Shown here one piece after another: positions 47,928 to 56,524 of a stretch of DNA of 64,000 nucleotides. Location of the stretch: contig JBFJHJ010000002.1 in assembly GCA_041613315.1 (NCBI GenBank), positions 26,014 through 90,013 on the forward strand, in the 5' to 3' direction. Both the position numbers and the translations under genes were made by a program. Position 1 is the stretch's first letter. Each line of letters opens with the position of its first letter. The notes under the pieces were generated by a model. That model saw nothing but the letters and a program-made list of their open reading frames with translations. It had not been told where the DNA came from and did not search any database. The DNA is from Gemmatimonadales bacterium. GTDB taxonomy: Bacteria; Gemmatimonadota; Gemmatimonadetes; Gemmatimonadales; GWC2-71-9.

Positions 47928-48424
47928 TCGTCTCTCTCATCGCCGCGATGGCGGAGAACCGAGTGATCGGTGGAGACAACGCCGTACCGTGGCACCTCCC
48001 GGCCGACCTCAGGCACTTCAAGACCCTGACGACCGGCCATCCCCTGATCATGGGCCGACGGACGTTCGAGTCGGTCGGGCGGCCGCTCCCCGACCGGCGG
48101 ACGATCGTCCTCACGCGTGACCCGGGGTTCCGACCGGCGGGCGTCGAGGTGGCACGCGACCTCGACGACGCGCTCGCCCGTGCTGGCGACGCCGAGGAGG
48201 TCTTCGTCGCCGGCGGCGCCGAGGTCTATCGCTCAGCCCTGCCGCGAGCCGACCGGCTCTACCTCACCGTCGTCCACGCGGTCGTCCCCGGCGACACGGT
48301 GTTCCCCGAACTGGATCTCTCCGACTGGCACCTCGACCGTGAGGAGCATCACAAAGCCGACGAGCGCCACGTTCACCCCTTCACCATCCGGTTCTACTCC
48401 CGCCGAGGTCGACCGCGCGCGTGA
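47924..48424 (+). CDS. folA: Dihydrofolate reductase (probable CTG start)
   Basis: (L)[46 protein letters not shown]. Confidence 0.93.
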
Positions 48425-48454
48425 TCGGGCGCACCGCCCGCGATCGGATCCGCG

Positions 48455-48503
48455 AAAAAAAGCGAAAAAACCTATTGCATATCTACTCGCCGTTCCTTAT
48501 CGT
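48455..48503 (+). promoter_or_regulatory. Putative sigma-70 promoter with phased A-tract UP element
   Basis: A7 and A6 tracts about 10 bp apart, then TTGCAT - 17 bp - TATCGT, upstream of the ATP-grasp/KamA operon. Confidence 0.6.
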
Positions 48504-48535
48504 GTTGCGCAACGACAACTCCAATCGGAGTTCCA

Positions 48536-49627
48536 TTGCGCATAGGACTCGCGTTCAATCAACGACCGGACAGCGCCGCCATGGCAAGCGGCGTCGACGG
48601 CAGCGCACCCCCACGATCGTTCCATGCGGTCGACGCCTTCGTTGAATGGGACGAGCCCGAGACGATCGACGCCGTCGCGGACGCGCTACAGCCCCTCGGC
48701 GAGGTGGTGCGCCTGGAGGCGGTGGAGGGCTTCCCCGCCCGCCTGTGGGACGAGCAGGTGGACTTCCTCTTCAACATGGCGGAGGGACTACGCGGGCCGA
48801 ATCGTGAGGCTCACGTCCCCGCCATCGCCGAGTTCCTCGGCGTCCCCTACCTCGGCAGCGATCCGCTCACCCTGGCGCTCGCGCTCCACAAGGCCCGCGC
48901 CAAAGACGTATGGACCGCCCGCCGGGTGCCGACGGCGCCGTTCTTGGTCGTCGAGTCCGACGCCGACCTCAGCGCGCTCGAGGCCTCGCGGCACTACCCC
49001 CTGTTTCTCAAACCCATGTGGGAGGGATCATCGAAGGGGATCTCGGAGGCGAGTTACGCGGAGACCCCGGCGGAGGCTGTCGCCCGTGCTCGGGAGTTGC
49101 GGGAGGCCTACCAGGAACCGGTGCTCGCGGAGGCGTTCCTCCCCGGCGACGAGTTCACCATTGCGGTCCTCGGTAATCGGGGCGAGGCCCGGTGCCTGCC
49201 CATCATCCGGTACCGGTTCAGCGAGCTCCCGTCGGGTGCCCTGCCGATCATGGGCTACGAGGCGAAGTGGTTCTGGGATCGACCGGAGACGCCCATGGAT
49301 ATCCTCGAGTGTCCCGCCGCGGTCCCCAGTCGGCTCGCCGCGCGACTTCGCTGGACGGCGCTCGCCGCCTATCACACGTTGGGCTGCCGCGACTGGGCGC
49401 GGGTCGATCTGCGGCTCGATGCCGACGGCCGCCCGCACGTGATCGAGGTCAATCCGCTCCCCGGCCTCATCCCCGATCCCGCCGCCCACAGTTGCTTCCC
49501 GCGTGCGGCCGCCGAGGCCGGCATGACGTACGCGGACCTGATTCAGCAGGCGACGCGCATCGCGTGGCGCCGGCTCACCGGCCACGACCTGCCGCAGGTG
49601 CCGCCGCTGGTGGAGGCCGTGTCGTGA
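48536..49627 (+). CDS. D-Ala-D-Ala-ligase-like ATP-grasp enzyme (paralogue 1)
   Basis: FNMAEG, LKPMWEGSSKGI, EAFLPGDEF, ARVDLR, EVNPLPGL. Lacks the Ddl GGxSxE motif. TTG start. Confidence 0.88.
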   Translation: MRIGLAFNQRPDSAAMASGVDGSAPPRSFHAVDAFVEWDEPETIDAVADALQPLGEVVRLEAVEGFPARLWDEQVDFLFNMAEGLRGPNREAHVPAIAEFLGVPYLGSDPLTLALALHKARAKDVWTARRVPTAPFLVVESDADLSALEASRHYPLFLKPMWEGSSKGISEASYAETPAEAVARARELREAYQEPVLAEAFLPGDEFTIAVLGNRGEARCLPIIRYRFSELPSGALPIMGYEAKWFWDRPETPMDILECPAAVPSRLAARLRWTALAAYHTLGCRDWARVDLRLDADGRPHVIEVNPLPGLIPDPAAHSCFPRAAAEAGMTYADLIQQATRIAWRRLTGHDLPQVPPLVEAVS

Positions 49628-50649
49628 AGATCGCGGTCCTCTATGACGGCGGCGCGGCGGACTGGAGTCCGCAGGACATCCAGTCCGTGCTGGAGCCGGT
49701 GGCCACCGTGAGCCGCGCGCTCCGGTCGGCCGGCCACCGGGTCGTGGCCGTCCCCGTGCAGCCGGGGCTCACGTGGTTCGATGCGGTCCGCCGGTGTGAT
49801 CTGGTGTTCAATCTCTGCGAGGGTGTGGGCGGCATCAGCCACCTGGAGTACAAGGTCGCGTCCGTTCTCGATCTGGCCGGCATCCGGTACACCGGGGGGT
49901 CGGCGTGGACCATGACGGTCTGTCACCGGAAGCCGTTGCTCAACGCGGTGCTCGCGGCGGAGGCGCTCCCGGTACCGGAGTGGGTGGTGCCCAACGGCGA
50001 CGTGCCCGATCCCGTGCCGTTGCCCGCCCTGGTGAAGCCGGCGGCGGAAGACGCCAGCGTCGGGGTGGATCAAGGATCGGTCGTCACGACCCGAGCAGAG
50101 TTGGAGGCGCGGGTCGCGAAGGCCACGCGGCAGTTCGGCGAGGTCATCGTGCAGCGCTACGTCGCGGGACGGGAGTTCGCCGTCGCGTTCGTCGGCGACG
50201 AGACGTTGCCCCTCTCGGAGATCGACTTCAGTCGGATGCCGGGAGGCGCGTGGCCTATACTCTCGTTCGACGCCAAGTGGAAGCCCGGAAGCCCCGAGGA
50301 TCGCGGCACGCGGCCCGTGTGTCCCGCGCGCGTGGACGACGCCCTCGCAGCGCGGCTCGTCGCGACGGCCCGGGCCGCCTGGCGCGCCGTCCGAGGGTAC
50401 GGCTATGGGCGGGTGGACTTTCGGGTGGACGCCGACGGCCGCCCGTGGGTGCTCGAGGTGAACCCCAACCCCGATATCTCGACCGATGCCGGGTTGGCGA
50501 ACATGGCACGCGCCGCGGGATGGACCTACGACGAGCTGGTACTCCGCATCCTCGGTGCCGCCATGGGGACCCCGGACGACCTGCCACCGTTCCGGTCGGC
50601 GGAGCTCGCGTGGTCTGCAGCCGGCGCCGGCGCCGAGGAGCCCGTGTGA
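49624..50649 (+). CDS. D-Ala-D-Ala-ligase-like ATP-grasp enzyme (paralogue 2)
   Basis: FNLCEG, VKPAAEDASVGV, GREF, GRVDFR, EVNPNPDI. GTG overlaps the previous stop. Confidence 0.88.
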   Translation: MKIAVLYDGGAADWSPQDIQSVLEPVATVSRALRSAGHRVVAVPVQPGLTWFDAVRRCDLVFNLCEGVGGISHLEYKVASVLDLAGIRYTGGSAWTMTVCHRKPLLNAVLAAEALPVPEWVVPNGDVPDPVPLPALVKPAAEDASVGVDQGSVVTTRAELEARVAKATRQFGEVIVQRYVAGREFAVAFVGDETLPLSEIDFSRMPGGAWPILSFDAKWKPGSPEDRGTRPVCPARVDDALAARLVATARAAWRAVRGYGYGRVDFRVDADGRPWVLEVNPNPDISTDAGLANMARAAGWTYDELVLRILGAAMGTPDDLPPFRSAELAWSAAGAGAEEPV

Positions 50650-51170
50650 CGCGCGCCGGTGACGCGGTCATCGTGCTGCGAGGGCCGCGGGCCGGCGAGC
50701 TGGAACGCGTCCGGGAGCTCGTCCGCGCCGCGGGCGTCTTCCGGCCCGAGGAGGTAAACGTGGCGATCGAGGTGTTCGAAGGCGCCGTGCGGTCCCCTGG
50801 CGTCGACTACCTCGGCATCGGGGCCTACGAGGATGATCGCCTCGTCGGGTTCACGCTCTTTGGGCCGACGCCCTGCACCGTTGGCACGTGGGATCTGTAC
50901 TGGATCGTGGTGGACCCGGCGGTTCACCGACACGGCGTGGGTCGCCGCCTGATGACGGCGGCGGAAACGGCGATGGCCCAACGAGGCGCCCGCCTGGTGG
51001 TGGTGGAGACCTCGTCGCGCGCCGACTACGAGCCCACACGCGCCTTCTACGACGCCCTGGGGTATGCCCGGGCGGCGCGGATCGCCGACTACTATGCGCC
51101 CCGAGACGACCTGGTCGTCTTCCGCAAGAGCCTCGTTTCTTCAACCGGCGAGACGACCCGCGATGGCTGA
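50646..51170 (+). CDS. GNAT-family N-acetyltransferase
   Basis: WDLYWIVVDP..HRHGVGRRLM (acetyl-CoA motif A), VETSS..Y..TRAFY..LGY. Confidence 0.9.
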   Translation: MTRAGDAVIVLRGPRAGELERVRELVRAAGVFRPEEVNVAIEVFEGAVRSPGVDYLGIGAYEDDRLVGFTLFGPTPCTVGTWDLYWIVVDPAVHRHGVGRRLMTAAETAMAQRGARLVVVETSSRADYEPTRAFYDALGYARAARIADYYAPRDDLVVFRKSLVSSTGETTRDG

Positions 51171-52317
51171 TTGGCAGAAGCGGCTGCGCGAGCGCGGCCT
51201 CCGAACCCTGGAGCAGCTCGTCGAGAAGTTCGGCGCCGAGCATTTCCCGGACCTCGAGCGGCTGCAACTCGCCGTGGAGAACTTCGAGTTCCGGATCTCG
51301 CCCGCCATGGTCGATCTCATCCAGGAACCGGACGATCCGATCTGGCGCCAGTACGTGCCCACGCTGGAGGAGCTCGAAGTCGTTGACGGCGTCCTCGACA
51401 GTCTGAACGAGGATGCCGACAGCCCGGTGCCCAACATCACGCACCGCTATCCGGATCGCGCCCTCTTTCTCGTCAGCCCCGTTTGCGCCGCCTATTGCCG
51501 GTTCTGTACGCGGCGCCGCAAGGTGGGCGACCCGGAGAAGATCCCGATGGCGCAGCTCGAGAGCGCCTTCCAGTATCTCGAGGAACATCGGGAGATCCGG
51601 GACGTGATCCTCTCCGGCGGCGACCCGATGCTCCTGTCGGACCGTCGCCTCGATGCCATCCTGACCCGTCTCCGGAAGATCCCGCACCTCGAGATCCTTC
51701 GCATCGGGAGCCGCGTTCCCTGCCACCTCCCGGAGCGGATTACGCCCGAGCTCTGCGCGATCCTCGCCAAGCACCACCCGTTCTACATCAACACGCACTT
51801 CAACCACCCCGCCGAGCTCACGCCGGCGGCGATCCGCAGCCTGGGAATGCTCGCCGATGCCGGTATCCCCCTCGGGTGCCAGACCGTGCTCCTCCGGGGC
51901 ATCAACGATGATGTCGAGGTGATGAAGGAGCTGATGCAGAAACTCCTCGCCGCCCGCGTCCGCCCGTACTACATCTACATGTGCGATAACGTGGCGGGGG
52001 TGGAGCACTTCAAGACGACGGTGGCCAAAGGCCTCGAGATCATCGAGGGTCTCCGCGGATGGACCAGCGGTCTCGCCGTCCCGCACTTCGTGATCGACGC
52101 ACCAGGCGGCGGCGGCAAGATTCCCCTCCTCCCGGAGTACGTCGAGCAGATCACCGACGACGAGGTGGTGCTCCGCAACTTCCGGGGGGACCGCTACGTG
52201 TGGACGCAGCCCCGGGAGGAGATCCTGGCGGCCGCCGACGTCGGCGGGCGCTCGTACGCGATGCACGTCACGACCGGTAACGGCCGGCGACGGGCGAGGA
52301 AGCGGAAGCGGGCGTAG
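51163..52317 (+). CDS. kamA: KamA-family radical-SAM/PLP lysine 2,3-aminomutase
   Basis: HRYPDR, CAAYCRFCTRRR, SGGDP, HFNHP, RPYYIYMCD, VIDAPGGGGKIP. Confidence 0.9.
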   Translation: MADWQKRLRERGLRTLEQLVEKFGAEHFPDLERLQLAVENFEFRISPAMVDLIQEPDDPIWRQYVPTLEELEVVDGVLDSLNEDADSPVPNITHRYPDRALFLVSPVCAAYCRFCTRRRKVGDPEKIPMAQLESAFQYLEEHREIRDVILSGGDPMLLSDRRLDAILTRLRKIPHLEILRIGSRVPCHLPERITPELCAILAKHHPFYINTHFNHPAELTPAAIRSLGMLADAGIPLGCQTVLLRGINDDVEVMKELMQKLLAARVRPYYIYMCDNVAGVEHFKTTVAKGLEIIEGLRGWTSGLAVPHFVIDAPGGGGKIPLLPEYVEQITDDEVVLRNFRGDRYVWTQPREEILAAADVGGRSYAMHVTTGNGRRRARKRKRA

Positions 52318-52347
52318 GCGCGCCCGTCGCCTCCCGCCGCGCCTCGA

Positions 52348-54441
52348 TCACTTGCCGTTGTCGCGCTCCTTCTTCCGCTCCTCAATGATCTTCTGGGCGA
52401 CCTCCGGCGGCACTTCCTGGTAGCTGGCGAACTGCCAGCGGAACGTGCCGCGCCCGTGCGTGATCGAGTGTAACTGCGTGGAGTAGCGATACATCTCCGC
52501 TTCCGGCACCTGGGCCCGGACCTTCGTGAGCCGGCCGTCCGGCTCGCTGCCCAGGATCTGACCCCGGCGCGCCGAGAGATCCCCCATCACCTCGCCGAGG
52601 TTATCCTCCGGCGCCCAGACCTCGACGTCGAGGATCGGCTCCAGGATCACCGGTTTGGCGTTCTGTGCGACGTCCCGGAATGCGTGGATCCCCGCCATCT
52701 TGAAGGATTGCTCGTTGCTGTCCACGTTGTGGTAGGATCCGTCGTAGCACTCGACCTTGAAGTCCACGACCGGATAGCCCGCCACGACACCGCGCTGCGC
52801 GGCCTCCTGGACGCCTTTATCGACCGCCGGGATGTACTTGTTGGGAATCACGCCGCCCTTGATCTGGTCGGCGAACTCGTACCCCGCGCCTCGCGGCAGC
52901 GGCGCGATCCGGATCCAGCAGTCTCCAAATTGGCCGCGGCCACCGGTCTGCTTCTTATGCCGGCCCTGCCCTTCAGCCTTGGCCCGGAACGTCTCCCGAT
53001 ACGCCACCCGGGGTCGGCTCAGCTCGGCGTGGACGCCGAACTTCCGCGCCAGCCGTCCGATGACGACTTCGAGGTGCCGCTCGCCGCGGCCGCTGATCAA
53101 CGTCTGTCCCAACTCCCCGCTGTACTCGTGGTGGAAGGTGGGATCCTCCTCGTGCAGCTTGTGGAGGCCCGTCGACAGCTTGTCCTCCTCGCCGCGCTGC
53201 TTCACTTCGACCGCCATCACGATCAGCGGCTCCGGGAATGGTATCGGCTTCACGATGGCCGGCATCTGGCGGGTCGAGAGCGTGTCGTTGGTATGCGTAT
53301 CCCGCAGCTTCGCCACGACCCCGATATCCCCGGCGTGAAGCGCCGAGACCTCGGTCCGCTCTTTCCCCTGTGCCACCGACAGGTGGTTGAGCTTCTCTTC
53401 GGCATTGCGGGGAGCATTGAACGCCGCGGCGCCGTTGGCGACTGATCCCGCGTAGACCCGGAAGAAGGTCACGTCCCCAACGTGCGGCTCGGAGACGGTC
53501 TTGAACACATGCGCCACGAACGATGACTTGTCGGCCTGCGCGAGCGAAATCTCCTCATCGGTATCGGTGCGAAAGGCCTTGATGGGCGGCAGCTGCGTGG
53601 GCGGCGGCACCAGTTCTGCGAGCTTCGTCAGCAGCGCCCGCATCCCGTACGTCTGCTGCGACGAGCCGCACAGCAGCGGGAACACCTCGCCGGTGAGCAT
53701 GCCCGCCTTCATTGCCTCGATGACGTCCTCCCTGGGGATCTCCTCGCCGCTGAGGTAGCGCTCCAACAGATCGTCATTCGTGGTGGCCACCGTCTCCACC
53801 AGCTCCTGGGAGTACTTCTCAAGGCGCTCACGGTATGCTTCCGGGACGTCCGTCTCTTCGTACTCGCCGGCCTTCGTCCCCTTCCGATACATGTGGCACT
53901 TCTTCGAGAAGAGGTTGACGATGCCATGGAACTCCGGCCCTTCGCCGACGGGGATCTCGATCGGGATGACCTTGTTCGTCAAGTGCTGCCGGATGTCCTG
54001 GTACACCTGTTCGAAGTCGGCGTGGTCCTTGTCGAGCAGCGACACGAAGAACAGGCGCGGGATACCGCGCTCCGCGGCGTACTCCCACACCTTCTCGGTC
54101 CCCACCTCGACCCCGGCCGTGGCGCTGACGACGACGAGCGCCGCATCCGCCGCATGGATCCCCGCAACCGCGTCGCCGATGAAGTCGAGATACCCCGGCG
54201 TATCGATCAGGTTGATCTTGGTGTCTTTCCACTCGGCGTGGGCCAGCGCCAGGCTGATGGAGTACTGCCGGTCGATTTCGTCTTGGGTGTAGTCGGTGAG
54301 GGCGGTTCCGTCGGTGACCGAACCATGCCGCTTGCTGCTGCCGGCCACGAACGCCAAGGCATCGACCAGGGAAGTCTTGCCGCTGGCGCCGTGGCCGACG
54401 ACCGCGACATTCCGAATGGACGCTCCTGTGTACTCGCGCAC
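52348..54441 (-). CDS. fusA: Elongation factor G paralogue (EF-G2 type)
   Basis: Full EF-G architecture (KKQTGGRGQFG, DGSYH, LEPI). G-motifs are divergent: GHGASGKT, DTPGY, SLLD. Confidence 0.9.
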   Translation of the reverse strand: MREYTGASIRNVAVVGHGASGKTSLVDALAFVAGSSKRHGSVTDGTALTDYTQDEIDRQYSISLALAHAEWKDTKINLIDTPGYLDFIGDAVAGIHAADAALVVVSATAGVEVGTEKVWEYAAERGIPRLFFVSLLDKDHADFEQVYQDIRQHLTNKVIPIEIPVGEGPEFHGIVNLFSKKCHMYRKGTKAGEYEETDVPEAYRERLEKYSQELVETVATTNDDLLERYLSGEEIPREDVIEAMKAGMLTGEVFPLLCGSSQQTYGMRALLTKLAELVPPPTQLPPIKAFRTDTDEEISLAQADKSSFVAHVFKTVSEPHVGDVTFFRVYAGSVANGAAAFNAPRNAEEKLNHLSVAQGKERTEVSALHAGDIGVVAKLRDTHTNDTLSTRQMPAIVKPIPFPEPLIVMAVEVKQRGEEDKLSTGLHKLHEEDPTFHHEYSGELGQTLISGRGERHLEVVIGRLARKFGVHAELSRPRVAYRETFRAKAEGQGRHKKQTGGRGQFGDCWIRIAPLPRGAGYEFADQIKGGVIPNKYIPAVDKGVQEAAQRGVVAGYPVVDFKVECYDGSYHNVDSNEQSFKMAGIHAFRDVAQNAKPVILEPILDVEVWAPEDNLGEVMGDLSARRGQILGSEPDGRLTKVRAQVPEAEMYRYSTQLHSITHGRGTFRWQFASYQEVPPEVAQKIIEERKKERDNGK

Positions 54442-54561
54442 GGTCTTCACCTCCTGAGGGCAGGGAGGTAGAACATGGCCGGTCCCACGTCCACTCGCTA
54501 GCCCCCGGGCCGAGCAGCCCGGTGGCACCGCCAGAAGCGACGGCCGGCCCACACGCAAGCG

Positions 54562-54589: not shown

Positions 54590-54631
54590 TCACGGATACC
54601 TTCGATCCGCCGAATGTCCGCCCGGCCCGCG

Positions 54632-55264
54632 CTACCCGCCCAGGCCGATGTTCATGACGTCCGTCGCCGGCTCCCCCTCGTCCAAGCCGTGGCGGAGGTG
54701 ATAGACGAGCCGCACGAGTACACGCACCGCCCGGAGGTTCAGCGCCAGCGCCTCAGCCGAGCGGCCCTCATCCAGGGCGGCGTCCGCGAGCTCGCGGAGC
54801 TCGGCGACGTGGGCGAGGACCCCACGGATCCGCGGTGCGTCGCGATCGCCCAAACGCTGCTCGATGCGGGCGCGGACCCGGTCCACGACCTGGCCGACCC
54901 GCGCCGGCGCGTCCGGGAAGGTATGGACGATCGCCTGCAGCAGCTTGTCGTAAGACTCTCGGGCGAGGGCCCGTGCGCGATCGAGGTCCCCCTCGTCACG
55001 GGCGGTACGTGCCTCGACCCGCAGGGCACGGGCGTCCTCCAGGAGCGCCACGGCGGTGGCGTCGCCGTGCTCCTCCACGGCGCGGACCAGTCGCTGGACC
55101 AGGTGAGCCAGGCCGACTTCCTCGCGGTCGAACGTGTGGTCCGCCTCAGCCGCCAGGGAGAGGGCCAGTCCCTCCTCCTCGGCCGGCGCCAGTGGGCCGG
55201 ATTGGTCGCACCCGGCGAGGACGAAGCCGGCCAGCGCGATCCCGATGAACGTACGGATACTCAT
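54632..55264 (-). CDS. Hypothetical alpha-helical lipoprotein
   Basis: VLAGC lipobox; two similar helical-hairpin units (GDLDRARALA / GRSAEALAL). Confidence 0.65.
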   Translation of the reverse strand: MSIRTFIGIALAGFVLAGCDQSGPLAPAEEEGLALSLAAEADHTFDREEVGLAHLVQRLVRAVEEHGDATAVALLEDARALRVEARTARDEGDLDRARALARESYDKLLQAIVHTFPDAPARVGQVVDRVRARIEQRLGDRDAPRIRGVLAHVAELRELADAALDEGRSAEALALNLRAVRVLVRLVYHLRHGLDEGEPATDVMNIGLGG

Positions 55265-55411
55265 GATCACCCCTCGTGTCGTGGTTTCCGAGGGCTTAGA
55301 CGAGTGCGGCGGGGTGCTGTTAAGGGGGCGAGGCCATCGCCCCGACCCGCACGCCTAGCCCGGCCACGCGACCGCAGGCATTCTTCGAATCGGAGGAACC
55401 GGACCCCAACC

Positions 55412-56524
55412 ATGCCACACGACCGTGTCCGCTCCCGACTCACCCGCCGCGACTTCGTCGCGTCCGGCCTCGCCGCCGCCGCGCTGGCCGTTCCGGCGGC
55501 GGGGCCGCTCCGCCAGCTCCGCCGCCGGCAGGGTTCCACCCCTGTGATCGACGGCCTCGGCGAGATCCGCCTCGACTACGACATGTCCCTGCTCGACGAG
55601 ATCCGCGCCAGCGGACTGACGGCCTGCGTCATCACGGTCGGCAACCCCGCCCTGCACGATGCGACCGCGTTCCCCGACCTGCGCCGCGAGATCGAGGCGT
55701 ACGATCGCCACGTCGCGAACCATCCCGACCGACTCGCTCACGCCCGTTCGGTCGGCGACATCGACCGCGCGCGGGCCCGGGGCACGATCGGGCTGCTGTA
55801 CTACACGCAGAACGCCACCCCCGTCGAAGACGACGTGCGCCGCCTCGACACGCTTCGGCAGTTGGGCGTGCGCATCGTCCAGCTCACGTACAATACCCGG
55901 AACCTCCTGGGCGACGGTTGCCTCGAACGTACCAACGCCGGCCTCAGTCGCTTCGGGCTCGAGGTCGTCGAGCGGTTGAACGCGCTTGATATGGTGGTCG
56001 ACGTGTCCCACTGCGGGGAGGCCACGACCCTCGATACGATCCGGTCTTCCCGGACGCCCGTCGCCGTGACGCACGCCGGGTGCAAGGCCGTTTTCGACCA
56101 CCCCCGCAACAAGACCGACGACGCGCTCCGCGCGCTGGCGGATCGCGGTGGGGTGATCGGCATCTACCAGATCAATCCGTATCTCGGGCCGAAGGAGCGA
56201 AACACCCTCGACGATTACCTGGCGCACCTCGATCACGCCATCAACGTGGCGGGGGTCGACCACGTGGGCATCGGCAGTGACCGTGAGCACCGCCCGATCC
56301 CCGACACCGAGGAAGAGAAGCAGAAACTCATCGCGGAGCTGGCACAGCTCCGTCCCGTTACCGCCGCCACGTTCCGCTGGCCCTTCTTCCTCAGCGAGCT
56401 CAACCACCCCCGGCGCATGGAGACCGTGCGGCGTGCGCTGGAGCGACGCGGCCGCCCCCCCGCGGACATCGACAAGATCCTAGGAGGGAATTTCTATCGG
56501 CTGTTTCGGGACACGCTCGGATGA
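55412..56524 (+). CDS. Tat-exported membrane dipeptidase (peptidase M19)
   Basis: TRRDFV Tat motif; QLTYN, VDVSHCG, HPRNK, HVGIGSD, ILGGNF. Confidence 0.9.
   Translation: MPHDRVRSRLTRRDFVASGLAAAALAVPAAGPLRQLRRRQGSTPVIDGLGEIRLDYDMSLLDEIRASGLTACVITVGNPALHDATAFPDLRREIEAYDRHVANHPDRLAHARSVGDIDRARARGTIGLLYYTQNATPVEDDVRRLDTLRQLGVRIVQLTYNTRNLLGDGCLERTNAGLSRFGLEVVERLNALDMVVDVSHCGEATTLDTIRSSRTPVAVTHAGCKAVFDHPRNKTDDALRALADRGGVIGIYQINPYLGPKERNTLDDYLAHLDHAINVAGVDHVGIGSDREHRPIPDTEEEKQKLIAELAQLRPVTAATFRWPFFLSELNHPRRMETVRRALERRGRPPADIDKILGGNFYRLFRDTLG

Follow-up and report, generated by a model that had tools for sequence, protein, structure and literature searches.

β-Lysine is encountered as an osmolyte precursor, as a modifier of EF-P, as a fermentation intermediate, and as a building block of antibiotics assembled by nonribosomal peptide synthetases (NRPSs). 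The osmolyte N-ε-acetyl-β-lysine is made by AblA and AblB, a lysine 2,3-aminomutase and a β-lysine acetyltransferase, and in streptothricin and viomycin β-lysine is incorporated by NRPS-type enzymes. A dipeptide osmolyte, N-acetylglutaminylglutamine amide (NAGGN), is made by AsnO together with Ngg, a fusion of a GNAT acetyltransferase and a RimK-like ATP-grasp enzyme. Here, we analyze a cassette of two ATP-grasp ligases, a GNAT, and a KamA-family aminomutase in a 64,000-nucleotide stretch of a Gemmatimonadales genome (GenBank assembly GCA_041613315.1, contig JBFJHJ010000002.1, positions 26,014 to 90,013); the whole stretch is called the window, and plain coordinates count from its first letter. 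The four genes are inherited together as one functional unit, and we regard it as an evenly balanced proposition that they make up a conserved biosynthetic operon for a small β-lysine-derived amide or peptide. An initial annotation of the same DNA had proposed that β-lysine is ligated into a peptide, a cell-wall peptide, or a protein tag, and that interpretation as a whole is partly supported by what follows. Literature searches on β-lysine or aminomutases combined with ATP-grasp enzymes found no description of the arrangement; the survey of ATP-grasp amidoligases by Iyer et al. (2009) may bear on it.

The cassette reads in one direction. It begins with ligase 1, a Ddl-derived, non-Ddl ATP-grasp amide ligase (48536..49627 (+), TTG start, 363 amino acids [[aa]]), followed by ligase 2, a second and divergent Ddl-derived ATP-grasp ligase (49624..50649 (+), GTG start, 341 aa), by a small N-acetyltransferase of the GNAT family that is not of the AblB type (50646..51170 (+), GTG start, 174 aa), and by KamA, a KamA-family radical S-adenosylmethionine (SAM)/pyridoxal phosphate (PLP) 2,3-aminomutase, of the lysine type as judged by its active-site residues (51163..52317 (+), ATG start, 384 aa). 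Direct reading of the sequence bears out the overlaps that the initial annotation had listed, namely, GTGA between ligase 1 and ligase 2, GTGA again between ligase 2 and the GNAT, and 8 nt, ATGGCTGA, between the GNAT and KamA. The TTG start of ligase 1 is regarded as fixed, because the N-terminal RIGxAFNxxP is kept in 9 of 9 orthologues and a GGAG lies 5 nt upstream.

How the four genes are inherited was followed in 201 genomes of the phylum Gemmatimonadota, in which orthologues were counted by identity thresholds. Ligase 1 has an orthologue in 97 of the 201, about half: 77 of 96 genomes in one family, 17 of 38 in a second, and one genome each in two further families, a count that leaves out two genomes (G011 and G030) with paralogue matches of 35 to 36% only. 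KamA (at least 64% identity) is found in 84 of these 97 genomes, and 12 of the other 13 carry KamA2 (at least 67% identity), a KamA paralogue present in 13 genomes in total. No genome has both, and a single one of the 97 has neither (G035, in which ligase 1 lies near a contig end), such that one or the other aminomutase accompanies ligase 1 in 96 of 97 genomes. Among the 104 genomes without ligase 1, KamA occurs only in G183 and KamA2 only in G096, and both matches are cut by contig ends. Three unpublished genomes (G057, G157, and G182), all with ligase 1 and KamA, are part of these counts; leaving them out gives 94 with ligase 1, 81 with KamA, 12 with KamA2, and 1 with neither.

Gene order was compared in two sets of loci that have few contigs in common, 20 loci chosen across genera and the 80 best loci of a genome-collection scan. 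All four genes stand in order in 18 of the 20. At least 2.9 kb of sequence downstream of ligase 1 was available at 65 of the 80, and ligase 2 and the GNAT follow at every one of the 65, with the slot after the GNAT holding KamA at 51, KamA2 at 3, and neither at 11. The 80 loci carry Gemmatimonadota names, apart from a record named "Bacterium HR33" and a contig of 3.6 kb under the label Solirubrobacterales. The genes on either side vary, with thyA-folA found at 7 of the 20 loci, an EF-G-like gene at 7, and an M19 peptidase gene at none. We conclude that the cassette is inherited as a functional unit, in keeping with the operon that the initial annotation described. Beyond what that annotation noted, the core of the unit is ligase 1-ligase 2-GNAT, and two distant KamA paralogues can each take the aminomutase slot. 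The mutual exclusion of KamA and KamA2 amounts to a clean natural experiment, which indicates that the aminomutase step is required.

Both ligases match the ATP-grasp family PF07478 (Dala_Dala_lig_C) above its gathering cut-off of 24 bits, ligase 1 with 113 bits and ligase 2 with 99 bits, and the best PDB match is a Ddl, at 145 bits. On the curated Ddl models, the scores are 156 and 137 bits for TIGR01205 (cut-off 243) and 131 and 119 bits for NF002378 (cut-off 245.65), respectively, and both ligases lie under all curated Ddl and Van cut-offs. The source genome keeps a separate true Ddl that exceeds the cut-off at 262 bits on another contig (C33). In a tree of 44 rows (a quick IQ-TREE search, with support from the Shimodaira-Hasegawa-like approximate likelihood ratio test only), six true Ddl proteins of the phylum form a clade with support of 100, and a branch with support of 100 sets all 38 Ddl-like rows apart from them. 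Each cassette ligase forms a clade of its own (support 99 in both cases) outside the true Ddl clade, and ligase 1 groups with KamA-fused ligase domains and with the modules of tandem ligases (support 93).

The motifs that the initial annotation had quoted are all present: ARVD, EVNP, and EGSSKG in ligase 1; GRVDxR, LEVNPNPDxSxDAGL, KPxxEDASxG (EDASVG in the window protein), and AKW in ligase 2; and GGxSxE in neither. Compared to Escherichia coli DdlB, ligase 1 keeps K144, S150, K215, R255, D257, E270, N272, and S281, lacks Glu15 and the GGxSxE motif, and has Y216 replaced by W and L282 by C. The first D-Ala site of DdlB comprises the GGxSxE motif with Glu15, and Tyr216 of the Glu15-Ser150-Tyr216 triad; the N terminus of ligase 1 reads RIGLAFNQRP, and ligase 2 has VLYDGGAADW. 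In ligase 2, moreover, EDAS replaces EGSS and the S281/L282 region is rebuilt (NPNPDxSxDAGL), and both ligases have FNxxEG where Ddl carries ALHGxxGEDG. Both ligases retain the equivalents of the catalytic ATP-grasp residues K144, K215, R255, D257, E270, and N272, and do so across nine orthologues each. The cassette ligases share the fold and the catalytic residues of the Ddl/Van ligases, and Ddl is a dimer, as the cassette pair may be, but they differ in falling below every curated cut-off, in having lost the first-substrate motif, in their place outside the true Ddl clade, and in coexisting with a true Ddl. A Ddl identity is ruled out by the scores, the lost Glu15/Tyr216, the tree position, and the separate genomic Ddl, and we conclude on these grounds that neither ligase is a D-Ala-D-Ala ligase, as the initial annotation had anticipated. 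Two further Ddl-like paralogues are found in the source genome, one on contig C22 (L134:6523-7656), downstream of an α/β hydrolase and of an amino acid permease that carries EIIA and TrkA-C domains, and one on contig C15 (L135:6705-7952, minus strand), beside a zinc-ribbon/Peptidase_Mx protein and purD.

KamA is the only KamA-family gene found in the source genome, which is 83% complete. It matches the Pfam families LAM_C (74 bits) and Radical_SAM (50 bits), and it belongs to the KamA family by TIGR00238, at 292 bits against a cut-off of 199. Among named equivalogs, it scores best on AblA (TIGR03820), at 445.3 bits, below the cut-off of 525.4, followed by glutamate 2,3-aminomutase (TIGR04368; 390.8 bits, cut-off 650), arginine 2,3-aminomutase (325 bits, cut-off 600), and EpmB (232 bits, cut-off 369). 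Against the solved clostridial enzyme 2A5H, the match reaches 390 bits, and the CxxxCxxC motif, R134, D293, D330, and K337 are kept. CAAYCRFC and GGGGK of KamA align to C125, C129, C132, and the PLP lysine K337 of 2A5H, and the acidic residues of YMCD and VIDAP, which the initial annotation had singled out, do align to Asp293 and Asp330, which bind the ε-amine of lysine in 2A5H. Cys268 of 2A5H is replaced by Asp and the C-terminal cysteines are missing in KamA, and the zinc site of 2A5H therefore seems to be absent. The active site is of the lysine type, and lysine is the substrate that the residues point to.

KamA2, in turn, is a 462-aa paralogue that is 28 to 34% identical to the cassette KamA and lies below the KamA-family cut-off (examples are L063:9700-11088, G145:C46:4908-6287, and G122:C2:66423-67793). 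At three loci, it occupies the slot 3' of the GNAT, with 28 to 29% identity to KamA. The iron-sulfur cysteines and both aspartates are kept, and the positions of Asp293 and Asp330 are invariant in an alignment that takes in KamA2. Because KamA2 occurs in six genera and most sampled members of three of these carry KamA, the swap from KamA to KamA2 seems to have happened more than once. If the substrate of the aminomutase were not lysine but arginine, say, or some other basic amino acid, the product would be a different β-amino acid peptide. The subthreshold AblA score, the 325 bits on the arginine model, and a slot that accepts two very different paralogues speak for such a substrate, but the lysine model scores above the glutamate and arginine models, and both ε-amine-binding aspartates are kept in KamA and KamA2 alike; we consider another substrate quite unlikely. 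The cassette KamA of G138, one of the 84 genomes, is split into three matching pieces of 73 to 77% identity (G138:C4:204507-205534), which suggests a frameshifted or decaying gene.

The GNAT matches PF00583 with 52 bits, and the named model that it fits best, rimI, gives 43 bits, short of the cut-off of 86. The closest solved structure, at 99 bits, is 2R7H, a structural genomics entry deposited as a "putative D-alanine N-acetyltransferase," and a literature search for 2R7H or Dde_3044 found no functional paper. A weak match to the tabtoxin resistance protein 1GHE (E value of 0.0037) was also found. The AblB model TIGR03827 gave no match to the GNAT at E values up to 0.01, and its best match in the whole source genome, 23.6 bits against a cut-off of 205.1, lies on another contig. 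These results bear on an explanation of the locus in which KamA and the GNAT alone make N-ε-acetyl-β-lysine and the ligases are unrelated passengers. An aminomutase beside an acetyltransferase in one operon is indeed the AblAB logic, and AblA is the best-scoring named model for KamA. The cassette differs from AblAB, however, in a KamA that falls below the AblA cut-off, in a 174-aa GNAT without an AblB match, and in two ATP-grasp ligases that are obligatory partners: ligase 1 and an aminomutase co-occur in all but one of the ligase 1 genomes, KamA is elsewhere fused to ligase-1-type domains, and most long homologues of the GNAT are fusions with ligase 2. We therefore regard plain acetyl-β-lysine synthesis with idle ligases as extremely unlikely.

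The partner of the GNAT appears to be ligase 2, which it always adjoins where enough flanking sequence is available. Ngg, which the initial annotation did not mention, is the closest working analogy for ligase 2 plus the GNAT: in Ngg, an acetyltransferase and an ATP-grasp enzyme act as a unit to yield an N-acetylated dipeptide, and ligase 2 and the GNAT adjoin or are fused. The two cases differ in that the ATP-grasp enzymes of the cassette are Ddl derived and that of Ngg is RimK-like, and in that the cassette has a second ligase and a β-amino acid-forming enzyme but no amidotransferase. No Ngg model was among the listed model matches (the best 25 of 37 and 35 families), and no search was aimed at Ngg. 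Three relatives of the GNAT (P0436, P0444, and P0452) are fused to a PF00850 domain, which resembles histone deacetylases and acetylpolyamine amidohydrolases, and these fusions hint that this type of GNAT acts on aliphatic amines.

Gene fusions connect the members of the cassette directly. Three proteins taken from the nearest 50%-identity representatives of KamA (P0128, P0149, and P0159) consist of KamA followed by a ligase domain that is 37 to 42% identical to ligase 1 over residues 1 to 348, and a further ligase 1-KamA fusion (P0296) was found among the long ligase 1 homologues. In a protein of the protist Paratrimastix (P0146), a GNAT 35% identical to that of the cassette precedes KamA in one polypeptide. 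Among 52 long GNAT homologues, 47 are ligase 2-GNAT fusions, from sources that include a Planctomycetes metagenome-assembled genome and Dissulfurirhabdus thermomarina; 1 is a ligase 1-GNAT fusion, 3 carry a PF00850 deacetylase domain, and 1 carries neither. The best 120 of 160 long ligase 1 homologues comprise 114 tandem double ligases, with source names such as Polyangiaceae, Minicystis, Byssovorax, and Deltaproteobacteria, together with 3 ligase 1-ligase 2, 1 ligase 2-ligase 1, 1 ligase 1-KamA, and 1 ThyX-ligase 1 fusions. With these fusions counted, each neighboring gene pair of the operon is known as a single polypeptide somewhere.

The initial annotation had suggested that the two ligases might form a heterodimer. 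The ligase 1-ligase 2 and tandem fusions favor such a pair, and when the two were modelled as a complex the median score was 0.58, against 0.17 for the best control, with partner values of at least 82 on the predicted local distance difference test (pLDDT) and agreement of the runs in at least 66% of contacts. The mark was reached in calibration by 58 of 80 solved complexes and by 2 of 110 mismatched pairs, and scores of up to 0.60, including this one, count as weak support; moreover, solved Ddl homodimers may account for the pass. From the fusions and the modelled complex together, ligase 1 and ligase 2 likely form a heteromeric pair. The pairing suggested by the initial annotation is plausible.

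How the cassette compares with EpmB/EpmA matters for a further explanation, in which the ligases attach β-lysine, or a peptide derived from it, to a macromolecule, either EF-P, in place of EpmA, or the peptidoglycan stem peptide. Both systems have a KamA-family enzyme with a ligated product; they differ in the EpmB score of KamA, which is below the cut-off, and in the location of efp on another contig. The EF-P of the source genome carries a lysine-tipped loop (VKPGKGGAF), and EpmA (genX) was not found over its cut-off in the 83% complete genome, where the best match reaches 266.8 bits against 286.9 and is a 764-aa frame taken to be lysS. Some ATP-grasp enzymes, such as RimK, modify proteins, and the cassette ligases descend from a cell-wall enzyme. 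Yet the same EF-P type and loop were found in both of the same-family genomes examined (G021 and G037) that have neither ligase 1 nor any KamA-family match. Furthermore, the Ddl first-substrate motif is lost, no VanH/VanX-like or Mur-like gene lies beside the cassette, and Ddl-clade enzymes are known to act on small molecules. A macromolecular target is, in our view, very unlikely, and the cell-wall peptide or protein tag offered by the initial annotation found no positive evidence in these comparisons. As that annotation had argued, the cassette is, by its sequences, neither AblAB nor EpmAB. KamD (PF09043), the β-lysine 5,6-aminomutase of the fermentative lysine pathway, had no match in the source genome, and the control genomes likewise gave none.

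Two EF-P types were seen in five Gemmatimonadota genomes (L244-L248: G067, G021, G069, G037, and G010), one with the loop VKPGKGGAF and a 30 to 36%-identical type with the loop TPGNLRA. Some of the five carry both, and three have the second type only.

Alternatively, the product might be a secreted specialized metabolite, such as an antibiotic-like or metal-binding β-lysine peptide, with the GNAT serving self-protection or tailoring as in tabtoxin, streptothricin, and negamycin-type chemistry. The weak match of the GNAT to 1GHE fits this explanation, and a Thioflavicoccus plasmid cluster that includes SbnA/SbnB, a diaminobutyrate (DABA) transaminase, and KamA resembles a natural-product cluster. 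In the natural-product routes that use β-lysine, a KamA homologue makes the β-lysine, which then enters the product through an amide bond. The negamycin gene cluster in particular is reported to pair β-lysine formation with ATP-grasp enzymes (bioRxiv 10.1101/2025.05.27.656397).

Against a secreted metabolite, no exporter, regulator, NRPS, polyketide synthase, precursor peptide, or resistance gene was found in or beside the cassette, and its flanks are thyA/folA, the EF-G-like gene, or variable. The vertical conservation within one family, in 77 of 96 sampled genomes, is unusual for such clusters, and the cassette differs from the β-lysine natural-product routes in being a minimal set of four genes without tailoring, export, or resistance functions. 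We consider a secreted metabolite unlikely. Instead, a cytoplasmic metabolite is the product that we favor, because genes for export, regulation, a precursor peptide, or resistance are missing from the cassette, because its neighbors are housekeeping genes, and because it is vertically inherited.

The pathway that best fits these observations would start with KamA, which would convert L-lysine to (3S)-β-lysine by radical SAM/PLP chemistry, as its conserved catalytic and substrate-binding residues suggest. The ligases, as Ddl descendants with a rebuilt first-substrate site, would each form one amide bond via an acyl-phosphate, ligase 1 acting on the KamA product and ligase 2 acting together with the GNAT, and the two would probably work as a Ddl-like heterodimer. 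The GNAT would acetylate a free amine of the substrate or product, and the pathway would be expected to end in an N-acetylated molecule that contains β-lysine and resembles a di- or tripeptide. The gene set, its co-inheritance, the fusions, the non-Ddl status of the ligases, and the conserved residues are observed; each chemical step, the step order, the partner amino acids, and the physiological role are inferred. As to role, our best guess is a compatible solute or a stress protectant, by analogy to N-ε-acetyl-β-lysine and NAGGN.

Several observations weigh against a β-lysine peptide solute. The genomes in which the genes co-occur are related and are not independent observations; 11 of the 65 loci have no aminomutase in the slot, and in genomes of one genus (g7), KamA2 lies approximately 10 to 18 kb downstream of the cassette. 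Lysine as a substrate rests on residues and not on family membership, as KamA stays below the AblA cut-off (445 versus 525 bits). The three KamA-ligase fusions P0128, P0149, and P0159 are singleton clusters and might be merged gene calls, yet the same architecture recurs in three diverged sequences. In other phyla, KamA or a GNAT lies within 7 kb of the tandem double ligases at 0 of 80 metagenome loci. The osmolyte role is an analogy only, and cassette-bearing relatives come from soil, freshwater, and marine samples alike, by their record titles. Finally, we know of no described product and of no assay on any enzyme of this clade.

The tandem double ligases, lacking KamA and GNAT neighbors, indicate that the ligase clade is broader than β-lysine. 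We tentatively suggest, while thinking it rather improbable in full, that ligase 1 and ligase 2 found a phylum-spanning clade of paired Ddl-derived ligases for β- and diamino acids, which in Gemmatimonadota joined with a GNAT and an interchangeable KamA-type aminomutase to make N-acetylated β-lysine peptide solutes, and which elsewhere might supply the Myxococcota-like S58 peptidases with a natural substrate. If the β-lysine reading of the cassette is true, ATP-grasp ligation independent of both the ribosome and NRPSs would be a fifth use of β-lysine, and a function would be at hand for many proteins annotated "D-alanine--D-alanine ligase" or "ATP-grasp domain-containing protein." Moreover, Gemmatimonadota are widespread in soil and water, and with about half of their sampled genomes carrying the cassette, the product may be an abundant and overlooked metabolite.

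The tandem double ligases themselves are 655 to 816 aa long and come from Myxococcota-like sources (L138-L217; for example, L145:7001-9046 and L145:8896-10500). A Peptidase_S58 gene (DmpA/BapA family) lies 3' of the tandem ligase at 49 of the 80 metagenome loci, and we know of no natural substrate for the S58 β-aminopeptidases. Further 3' stands a glutathione-synthetase-like ATP-grasp gene, and the frame at L145 matched 14 loci by tblastn from the reference locus.

The surroundings of the cassette in the window, which has a G+C content of approximately 70%, were also inspected. Upstream lie thyA and folA, and between folA and ligase 1 is a gap of 111 nt (48425..48535 (+)), lower in G+C than its surroundings, which holds the Shine-Dalgarno-like GGAG at 48527-48530 and is presumed to be the regulatory region of the operon. 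The initial annotation had placed the operon behind its own promoter, a claim that did not hold up, as a consensus scan gave 0 sigma-70-like sites in 48200-52600; because of that result, a promoter in the gap can only be presumed. The same scan found no terminator-like site at the 3' end of the operon. Downstream, an EF-G-like gene (52348-54558 (-), a 736-aa frame whose family was judged from its translation) converges on the operon across a 30-nt gap. Two of the seven loci at which this gene adjoins the cassette belong to the sister family, so the neighborhood looks like old synteny and not a functional link. Beyond it lies a gene for a 636-aa protein (54614-56524 (+)) with an M19 membrane dipeptidase domain at residues 324 to 632 and an N-terminal portion of approximately 320 aa without a Pfam match. 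This dipeptidase was considered as a member of the cassette and rejected, as it is near the cassette at none of the 20 loci. The source genome is 2.63 Mb in 52 contigs. Sequencing runs that match the stretch include no listed RNA run, and the matching DNA was found in marine-metagenome DNA runs of two studies.

Relatives of the cassette genes are also found on plasmids. On plasmid pTHIMO01 of Thioflavicoccus mobilis (L132, NC_019941.1, 6691-12172), a KamA gene is convergent with a diamino acid operon that encodes SbnA, a cyclodeaminase resembling SbnB, a DABA transaminase, and a Ddl-like ATP-grasp enzyme. KamA thus stands there beside other makers of diamino acids, and the cluster likely makes a peptide from diamino acids that are not found in proteins. 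An ATP-grasp gene with 34% identity lies near a CapA gene on rhizobial plasmids.

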